Part shown: positions 2,317 through 64,000 of the stretch, in pieces
Layout of the letters: each line of letters opens with the position of its first letter
Numbering within the stretch: the stretch's first letter is position 1
From: Escherichia coli
Lineage (GTDB): Bacteria > Pseudomonadota > Gammaproteobacteria > Enterobacterales > Enterobacteriaceae
DNA: 64,000 nt
Assembly (NCBI RefSeq): GCF_003334405.1
Contig: NZ_QOWM01000017.1
Reading direction: 5' to 3' (one strand)
Notes under the pieces: model-generated
Seen by the model: only the letters and a program-made list of their open reading frames with translations
What the model was told of the DNA's origin: nothing
Databases searched by the model: none
Translations under genes and position numbers: made by a program

Positions 2317-3526
<1,210 letters not shown>

Positions 3527-63368: not shown

Positions 63369-63593
63369 TCTTTCCGCGTCTCATCTTTATCGGTGAGACG
63401 CACCCTCAAAATTTCTCCTTCACTCTATAGTCTTTTCGCTTTACTCCCGTTCATTCAACTTAAGTCTCCATTTTTTTGCATTACTACTATCTGTCAGACC
63501 TCCATTCTTCTGTTGATAAAACACTCTTTTTGACGTTTTTACAGACTAATTGAACGTGAAGTGTGCAAACGATAAAAGTGTAGGAAAAATTGT

Positions 63594-63621
63594 TTGACTT
63601 ATAAGTCTCAGAAAGTAATAT
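63594..63621 (+). promoter_or_regulatory. Candidate sigma70 promoter of the serV-argV tRNA operon
   Basis: TTGACT -N16- TAATAT followed by a GC-rich discriminator (GTGCGCCACGC), ~55 bp upstream of tRNA-Ser. Confidence 0.55.
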
Positions 63622-63683
63622 GTGCGCCACGCAGCGACGATGAGCGATAAACAAGTTCTTCGAAGCACTCGTAAGAGGCGTGT

Positions 63684-63776
63684 GGTGAGGTGGCCGAGAG
63701 GCTGAAGGCGCTCCCCTGCTAAGGGAGTATGCGGTCAAAAGCTGCATCCGGGGTTCGAATCCCCGCCTCACCGCCA
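63684..63776 (+). tRNA. serV: tRNA-Ser (anticodon GCU)
   Basis: GGTGAGGTGGCCGAGAGGCTGAAGGCGCTCCCCTGCTAAGGGAG...GGGGTTCGAATCCCCGCCTCACCGCCA; long variable arm, encoded CCA. Confidence 0.95.
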
Positions 63777-63779
63777 TTT

Positions 63780-63856
63780 GCATCCGTAGCTCAGCTGGAT
63801 AGAGTACTCGGCTACGAACCGAGCGGTCGGAGGTTCGAATCCTCCCGGATGCACCA
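63780..63856 (+). tRNA. argV: tRNA-Arg (anticodon ACG)
   Basis: GCATCCGTAGCTCAGCTGGATAGAGTACTCGGCTACGAACCGAGCGGTCGGAGGTTCGAATCCTCCCGGATGCACCA; 3 bp after tRNA-Ser. Confidence 0.95.
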
Positions 63857-63971
63857 TATTCTACGTACTTTCAGCGATGAAGGTATGGAAGAGGTGGCGG
63901 TAATAACCGCAGGCACCAGGGAGGATAACGTTGCTTTAGCAACGGCCCGAAGGGCGAGCCGCAAGGCGAGT

Positions 63972-63990
63972 AATCCTCCCGGATGCACCA
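63972..63990 (+). other. 19-bp duplicate of the tRNA-Arg 3' end (T-arm/acceptor/CCA) without a tRNA 5' half
   Basis: AATCCTCCCGGATGCACCA is identical to argV 63838-63856; the preceding sequence (GCGAGCCGCAAGGCGAGT) cannot form the matching acceptor or T stems. Confidence 0.6.
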
Positions 63991-64000
63991 TCTCTTAATT

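Follow-up and report, generated by a model that had tools for sequence, protein, structure and literature searches.

The second copy of a tRNA-Arg end, which lies downstream of argV near the 3' end of the window (the whole 64,000-nt stretch of Escherichia coli DNA that was analysed), is very likely the 3' end of an RtT-related spacer module in the serV-argVYZQ operon, and not an att scar.

Organization of the serV-argV region

The 3' end of the window corresponds to the csrA-serV-argV region of E. coli and contains the following features.

63594-63621, + strand: promoter-like site TTGACT-16-TAATAT, upstream of serV (consensus match only).
63684-63776, + strand: tRNA-Ser(GCU), serV (ARAGORN, Rfam tRNA model and K-12 annotation).
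63780-63856, + strand: tRNA-Arg(ACG), argV (ARAGORN, Rfam tRNA model and K-12 annotation); repeat copy 1 is formed by its final 19 nt (63838-63856).
63857-63990, + strand: whole 134-nt spacer module (115 nt plus the 19-mer), a short-form, 5'-truncated RtT-like unit (Rfam RF00391, fold and recurrence in 198-bp spacers).
63972-63990, + strand: repeat copy 2, the 3' end of the module, with 19/19 identity to the argV tail and homology to the 3' terminus of the RtT repeats of tyrT.
63991-64000, + strand: first 10 nt (TCTCTTAATT) of an inter-tRNA spacer of the ordinary 62-63-bp type, beyond which lies the next tRNA-Arg; the same continuation is found in strains H2 (L002 3570-3633) and 3908 (L001 3708-3770).

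The 19-mer AATCCTCCCGGATGCACCA was present twice, once as the tail of argV and once at 63972-63990; the interval (63857-63971) measures 115 nt. No further match was found in the 64-kb window with up to two mismatches allowed, for a chance expectation of 0.01; the repeat is real and far above chance. From its 5' end, the second copy is composed of AAU from the T-loop, CCUCC (T-stem 3' strand), CGGAUGC (acceptor 3' strand), the discriminator A and CCA. The preliminary description of this DNA had reported that the final 19 nt of tRNA-Arg recur exactly, 10 nt from the end of the window and behind a 115-nt interval with a hairpin CGTTGC-TTTA-GCAACG. All of this was borne out, with the hairpin located at 63929-63944. 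It had also stated that the rest of the tRNA is missing around the second copy; indeed, ARAGORN found no tRNA gene or pseudogene cloverleaf there, and the Rfam tRNA model gave no match at E ≤ 1 in 63850-64000.

On the minus strand, ARAGORN called a tRNA-Arg(tcg) at 63800-63871, which overlaps argV as the antisense of the real tRNA; this call is almost certainly a false positive. Weak antisense Rfam matches (Plastid-ycf2, 33 bits) were likewise observed on each tRNA-Arg.

The promoter-like site, scored at 3035-3062 of the strain 3908 locus (L001, in which position 3001 is window position 63560), was the only one on the + strand before or inside the tRNA array. Moreover, no terminator-like site was found on the + strand inside the tRNA-Arg array, and a terminator-like hairpin was located beyond the last module.

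A recurrent spacer module in the tRNA-Arg arrays of E. coli

A megablast search with 63560-64000 matched all of the 5426 complete E. coli genomes searched. Three complete genomes, those of strains 3908 (L001), H2 (L002) and K-12 (L003), shared the gene order alaS-csrA-serV-(tRNA-Arg)n-yqaB-yqaA-gshA, with three or four tRNA-Arg(ACG) genes per array. In the window, the module starts 1 nt after the CCA of argV, on the same strand; in the three genomes it likewise lies immediately behind a tRNA gene.

Two types of inter-tRNA spacer were observed: short spacers of 62-63 bp, beginning with TCTCTTA(C/A)TTGATA; and long spacers of 198 bp, which in all three strains correspond exactly to the 134-nt module followed by a short spacer. 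The module is thus bounded by a 20-nt direct repeat, AATCCTCCCGGATGCACCAT. The order of the spacers differed between strains, being module, short, module in K-12; module, module in strain 3908; short, module in strain H2; and short, short, module in locus L097. A diverged or degenerate module, with a tail starting with TCATCC and not TAATCC, was found behind the last tRNA-Arg in all arrays read.

The 115-nt part was present in 5289 of the 5426 complete genomes, with 4 places per genome as the median; the other 137 were without a match at E ≤ 1e-5. No annotated feature lay under it in any of the 25 sampled rows. One of the 18,035 matching places was on a plasmid. Since the module is missing from some spacers in many genomes, it is dispensable at any single position.

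These arrays bear on a proposal of the preliminary description, according to which the two 19-mers are the footprint of an integrase-mediated insertion (attL and attR) or of an eroded element. Spelled out, an integrase-borne element would once have inserted into the segment of argV from the T-loop to the 3' end, and the 115 nt would be its remnant. As in tRNA-gene att sites of the T-loop sublocation class, a direct repeat runs from inside the T-loop to the CCA and flanks foreign-looking, non-tRNA DNA. Many tyrosine integrases cross over in the T-loop, which duplicates exactly this 3' part of the tRNA gene. However, no integrase or other mobile-element gene, and no island, was found at the serV-arg locus of the three complete genomes, in which the neighbours are csrA and yqaB. 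The interval is just 115 nt long, without a conserved ORF, and near-universal in E. coli; and, unlike an att site, the 134-nt unit is reiterated behind several tRNA-Arg genes of one array, including the last. Nor was an attP-like copy (the orphan 19-mer) found in a scan confined to viral contigs, 2.9 million in number, where only phage-encoded tRNA-Arg genes matched.

The preliminary description had proposed to look downstream for further tRNA-Arg copies or integrase genes, and to compare the K-12 serV-argVYZQ cluster. The complete genomes contained the former without the latter, and K-12 carries the module in its 198-bp spacers and not in every spacer. It had also held that the att idea would fall if the 19-mer simply belonged to the conserved array spacer of E. 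coli, with no mobile-element genes at its sides, which is what was found. The 19-mer belongs to a spacer module that is conserved in the tRNA-Arg arrays of E. coli generally; on these terms the att reading is contradicted for this locus, and we consider it highly improbable.

The viral matches were 87-nt tRNA-Arg(TCG) genes on three IMG/VR contigs (L125 8593-8679, L126 1676-1762 and L127 4131-4217), whose last 19 nt are identical to the tail of E. coli tRNA-Arg(ACG). These phage tRNAs exhibit a UUCAAAU T-loop and a long variable region, and on two of the three contigs they belong to clusters of 19-23 tRNA genes.

A separate rearrangement was observed in E. coli XL10-Gold (L128 6221-6330, NZ_CP081008.1), where argV is cut right after the T-stem 5' strand (..GGTCGGAGG). 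The fragment is followed by about 55 nt (GGGGCTTGTAATGGGTTAAGTGATAACAGATGTCTGGAAATATAGGGGCAAATCCA), which resemble an insertion-sequence end, and then by the yaiP-yaiS-tauABCD region. We considered site-specific integration for this break and rejected it in favour of an apparent lab-strain rearrangement joining argV, the insertion-sequence-like fragment and the yaiP region; the position of the break just before the T-loop appears to be a coincidence.

Predicted structure of the module

The fold of the module had a free energy of -60.3 kcal/mol, versus -38.9 ± 4.0 kcal/mol for shuffled sequences (z = -5.4). The following elements were distinguished, from the 5' to the 3' end.

63860-63892, + strand: 5' variable hairpin A (MFE structure), different in sequence in Enterobacter and Brenneria.
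63897-63910, + strand: hairpin B, GCGGU-AAUA-ACCGC (MFE structure).
63913-63926, + strand: 5' strand of the closing helix, GCACCAG-GGAGG-AU, pairing with 63973-63986 at 12 of 14 positions.
63929-63944, + strand: core hairpin 1, CGUUGC-UUUA-GCAACG (fold; helix 1 of alignment A1, with 3 of 7 pairs changed on both sides).
63945-63955, + strand: core hairpin 2, GCCC-GAA-GGGC, which is the best-conserved motif in the family (fold, Rfam alignment and A1).
63958-63967, + strand: core hairpin 3, GCC-GCAA-GGC, between GAG...GAG flanks (helix 3 of A1, with 4 of 5 pairs changed on both sides).

Hairpin B has counterparts in Enterobacter cloacae (TGCGA-GTTAA-TCGCA) and Brenneria (ATCGTTT...AAACGAT), which, in these few sequences, are suggestive of compensation.

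In the closing helix, the partner strand is AU-CCUCC-CGGAUGC (63973-63986), and ACCA stays single-stranded. The 5' strand resembles the acceptor 5' strand of the tRNA (GCAUCCG) joined directly to the T-stem 5' strand (GGAGG), so the helix imitates the stack of acceptor and T-stem of tRNA-Arg, with the three core hairpins in place of the T-loop. This 5' strand fits the reverse complement of the 3' region of tRNA-Arg better than that of other tRNA types. More generally, when 13 module types were scored for identity of the 5' arm to the reverse complement of tRNA tails, the best match was to the tail of the module's own tRNA in 11 of them. Mismatches nevertheless build up in the closing helix of E. 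coli copies 2 and 3, which argues against strong selection on this helix. The 5' strand opens with GCACCA (63913-63918), the same hexamer as the tRNA 3' terminus, probably as a consequence of the near-palindromic acceptor sequence.

The core hairpins covary, with compensatory changes in helices 1 and 3. In alignment A1, composed of the 3' halves of 30 modules, 90% of the cells of the core helices were paired, and 42 cells exhibited changes on both sides versus 15 ± 3.1 in shuffles (none of 500 reached 42) and 0-9 for slid pairings; as these sequences are related, shared ancestry can inflate the shuffle test. Hairpin 2 was invariant, and covariation cannot be judged for it, because it is part of the search pattern. 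Hairpin length did not set hairpin 3 apart from shuffles, since short GC-rich segments fold anyway.

The resemblance of the module strands to the acceptor 5' and T-stem 5' strands, and to the T-stem 3' and acceptor 3' strands, of tRNA-Arg would also suit a decayed partial duplicate of the tRNA gene, that is, a pseudogene of unequal crossing-over with neither structure nor role of its own. Unequal recombination clearly alters the arrays, and decayed copies of the module are known (L038, L121 and L122). A pseudogene of this kind is at odds, however, with a fold far more stable than that of shuffles and with the compensatory changes in the core hairpins. Moreover, the core of about 60 nt is not tRNA-Arg sequence and is highly identical to that of modules behind tRNA-Tyr, -Lys, -Pro and -Ser genes in distant Gammaproteobacteria. 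The Yersinia nurmii form described below, which retains tRNA-like sequence, speaks for a decayed duplicate; on balance, this reading seems unlikely to us.

Relationship to the RtT repeats of tyrT

The Rfam model RF00391 (RtT), whose gathering threshold is 45 bits, matched the module of the window with 33 bits (E = 3.9e-05) at model positions 51-130, to which the 3' 70 nt of the module align. Every arg module was matched in the same way, with 23-33 bits and at model positions of about 51-130 only; for example, the three copies of strain 3908 (L001) scored 31, 29.2 and 22.8 bits. The arg modules fall below the threshold because the 5' half of RtT is missing, and no RtT match at the gathering threshold was found in the arg arrays of L097, L049 and L077. 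The tyrT repeats of K-12 scored 114-137 bits.

Side by side, the tyr and arg units share AACGTTGC, a loop and GCAACGGCCCGAAGGGYGAG, then a small GC hairpin and GA(G/A)TAATCC. Their common motif can be written as AACGTTGC..GCAACGGCCCGAAGGGYGAG..GAGTAATCC; the local tRNA end comes next and is CTTCCCCCACCACCA for Tyr and CTCCCGGATGCACCA for Arg. Like the RtT repeats and rttR, the arg module lies directly behind a tRNA gene in a tRNA operon, is repeated within that operon and ends in a copy of about the last 19 nt of that tRNA, CCA included. Both contain the core AACGTTGC..GCAACG, GCCCGAAGGGC, the small GC hairpin and GAGTAATCC, with the core hairpins and the GAGUAAUCC junction at model positions of about 60-120, and both have a closing helix formed by an upstream strand and the copied tRNA tail.

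The two differ in several respects. A full-length match of at least 45 bits, including the 5' half of the model, was not obtained for the arg module, in which unrelated 5' hairpins take the place of the T-arm-like hairpin GAUGAGAAC, the forward T-stem with UUCGA and the GAGCGnAGCGAGA hairpin. Whereas RtT forms a pure tandem run, the arg module and tRNA genes take turns along the array, and its RNA product is predicted only. On this sequence comparison, the modules of the arg operon are clearly relatives of RtT, and they are unannotated in the records examined.

The tyrT repeats with their 19-bp tRNA tail, the rtT RNA and the Rfam RtT family are already known. RtT repeats are described as 178-bp repeats distal to tyrT-tyrV in E. 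coli (Bosl and Kersten 1991, as related in PMC3318445 and PMC4986893). Matches to the family adjoin several kinds of tRNA genes (PMC4986893, PMC7542023), and its structure has covariation support (PMC8250186). No paper describing the arg-operon modules was found in the openly searchable literature. TRIP1 repeats were also considered as relatives of the module and proved to be unrelated.

In the K-12 annotation, one tyrT repeat is a 171-nt small RNA, rttR, whose 3' end is exactly the CCA of its orphan tRNA tail. To our knowledge, the sole reported effect of the rtT RNA is an altered stringent response on over-production.

The tpr ORF, for a protamine-like protein, overlaps rttR within the tyrT repeat of K-12, and by analogy the arg module could encode a small basic peptide. 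An ATG at 63885 does open a 37-codon frame to 63998 (the C-terminal part of an 89-aa ORF) with an Arg/Lys-rich product. However, module copy 2 has ATC in place of this ATG, and copy 3 has a different frame; measured against the shared core, the frame does not coincide with that of tpr, and no properly spaced ribosome-binding site precedes it. Variation in the core, moreover, follows base-pairing and not codons. Coding potential was rejected for the module, the frame not being kept among the copies, and a peptide is thus extremely improbable.

The same core behind other tRNA genes

We scanned for the core, GCRRCGNCCCGAAGGGNGA, in one genome per species, and the many chance matches in GC-rich genomes were discarded. 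Among the matches listed, the core stood 47-124 nt behind a tRNA gene for Tyr, Lys, Arg (anticodon ACG or CCG), Pro (CGG or UGG) or Ser (UGA), in Enterobacterales, Gilliamella, Marinobacterium, Halieaceae and Thioalkalivibrio. Each intact module listed finishes with 18-22 nt identical to the 3' end of its local tRNA, often with one to three trailer bases, and the module tail follows species-specific variants of the tRNA tail (e.g., L031, L041, L046 and L101). Decayed tails were observed in L038, the second copy of L121, L122 and L033.

Some intact cores carried a tail matching no nearby tRNA (e.g., ATCCTTACCGCTATAGAA), namely at L038 2748, L121 1541 and L122 (minus strand, 5449 of the reversed locus), and likewise in L011 (minus strand, 9367) and L045 (minus strand, 1585). 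These modules are decayed or relocated copies, so the tail is not maintained everywhere.

Two forms of the module were distinguished. Between the 5' strand and the core, long forms additionally contain a T-arm-like hairpin (loop AUGAGAA), the forward T-stem 5' strand of the local tRNA with UUCGA, and the GAGCGnAGCGAGA hairpin. Scores above the Rfam threshold (49-101 bits) were obtained for the long forms linked to Lys, Pro, Ser and Arg(CCG) genes and, in Yersinia nurmii (70.8 bits), to an Arg(ACG) gene; in E. coli, Enterobacter cloacae and Brenneria, the Arg short forms fell below it. In the Y. nurmii module (L101 2034-2160), about 37 nt just upstream of the core are similar to a D-stem, anticodon arm, variable loop and T-stem. 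Judging from its sequence, this module resembles a copied tRNA whose T-loop is interrupted by the core between TTCGA and ATC.

The placement of the long-form core between TTCGA and ATCC of a local T-arm copy resembles a T-loop insertion, as would be expected of an att site. Nevertheless, the core follows at least six other tRNA types, each with its own end, which a single site-specific integrase would not bring about; association with many tRNAs sets the module apart from tRNA-gene att sites. These observations are in better agreement with an RtT-related spacer module.

Short forms were also found behind tRNA-Lys genes, in the lysT-valT-lysW... operon of the E. coli group (L063, L069, L081 and L096). 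They share with the Arg short forms the identical junction AGGAT|AACGTTGC, a near-identical core, a 5' strand that can pair with the tail of the local tRNA, and a terminus copied from the 3' end of that tRNA. They differ in that tail and 5' strand derive from tRNA-Lys and that the module begins about 47 nt after the tRNA; they pass the Rfam threshold solely through the T arm of the upstream tRNA, which the alignment borrows. The junction common to the Arg and Lys short forms suggests an exchange of cores between operons, the arms staying tRNA-specific. In L063 (minus strand, core at 14085 of the reversed locus), the TTTA loop of hairpin 1 is also identical to that of the module at 63920-63971 of the window.

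Moreover, three head-to-tail modules were observed behind the last tRNA (Lys or Tyr) in L043 (1136-1680), L078 (1958-2500) and L021 (7323-7930), the hosts being Klebsiella sp., Pantoea sp. and Superficieibacter. In the Lys arrays, a terminator-like hairpin (GGCGCCCTAAAGGCGCC TTTTT) follows each module; the repeat unit there therefore includes the terminator.

Proposed processing and maintenance of the module

The module is most likely a co-transcribed spacer element with a tRNA-like end. It would lie inside a single transcription unit and be transcribed together with the tRNAs. In E. coli, tRNA 3' ends are produced by an endonuclease cut downstream, followed by exonuclease trimming. Since the end of the module is that of tRNA-Arg, this normal pathway would be expected to trim the module to CCA, through the same tRNA 3'-end enzymes. 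RNase P might cut before G63913, and a small structured RNA may be released, as is the case for the 171-nt rtT RNA of the homologous tyrT unit, from which this step is extrapolated. We are moderately confident in these predicted processing steps.

Functional spacer RNAs of tRNA operons are known from 3'ETS-leuZ, which acts as a sponge for small RNAs. As with spacer RNAs of this type, the arg module would be a segment cut from a polycistronic tRNA precursor that could persist with an activity of its own. The 3'ETS-leuZ type differs in that its members are sponges by base-pairing and lack a tRNA-like end.

At the DNA level, the 19-20-nt direct repeat may be the site at which unequal recombination removes or duplicates the module, either alone or together with a tRNA gene; here, we observed the geometry of the repeats and infer the mechanism. 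Such recombination would leave spacers of either 62-63 bp or 198 bp, and arrays and tRNA-Arg copy number that differ by strain. Exchange with the neighbouring tRNA gene would also keep the tail of the module identical to the tRNA. The preliminary description had offered, as its other explanation, a by-product of the tandem duplications of the arg genes. This holds insofar as gains and losses fall exactly between the 19-20-nt repeats and the arrays vary by strain, but it misses both the conserved, structured, RtT-related 115 nt and the occurrence of the core behind other tRNA genes.

A broader and rather doubtful proposal is that RtT-type modules, including the short arg form, are one family of tRNA-minihelix mimics, not duplication debris, with a mobile or exchangeable core and a role in the handling of tRNA ends. 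The core of about 60 nt would sit at the T-loop position of a helix made of the acceptor and T-stem strands of the local tRNA. The family would have spread among at least seven types of tRNA operon in Gammaproteobacteria, by T-loop-targeted insertion or by exchange of cores between operons. One conceivable role of its processed RNA is that of a decoy or buffer towards factors that bind tRNA ends, for example those of processing or CCA repair.

Implications for tRNA operons and the RtT family

A short repeat of a tRNA tail beside a tRNA gene is, by itself, no evidence of an integrated element. A covariance model covering the short form would annotate the modules of the arg operon. Within the family, a general rule is apparent: the 3' end of the local tRNA tips the core in every intact copy listed, and a matching 5' strand is present in most module types.
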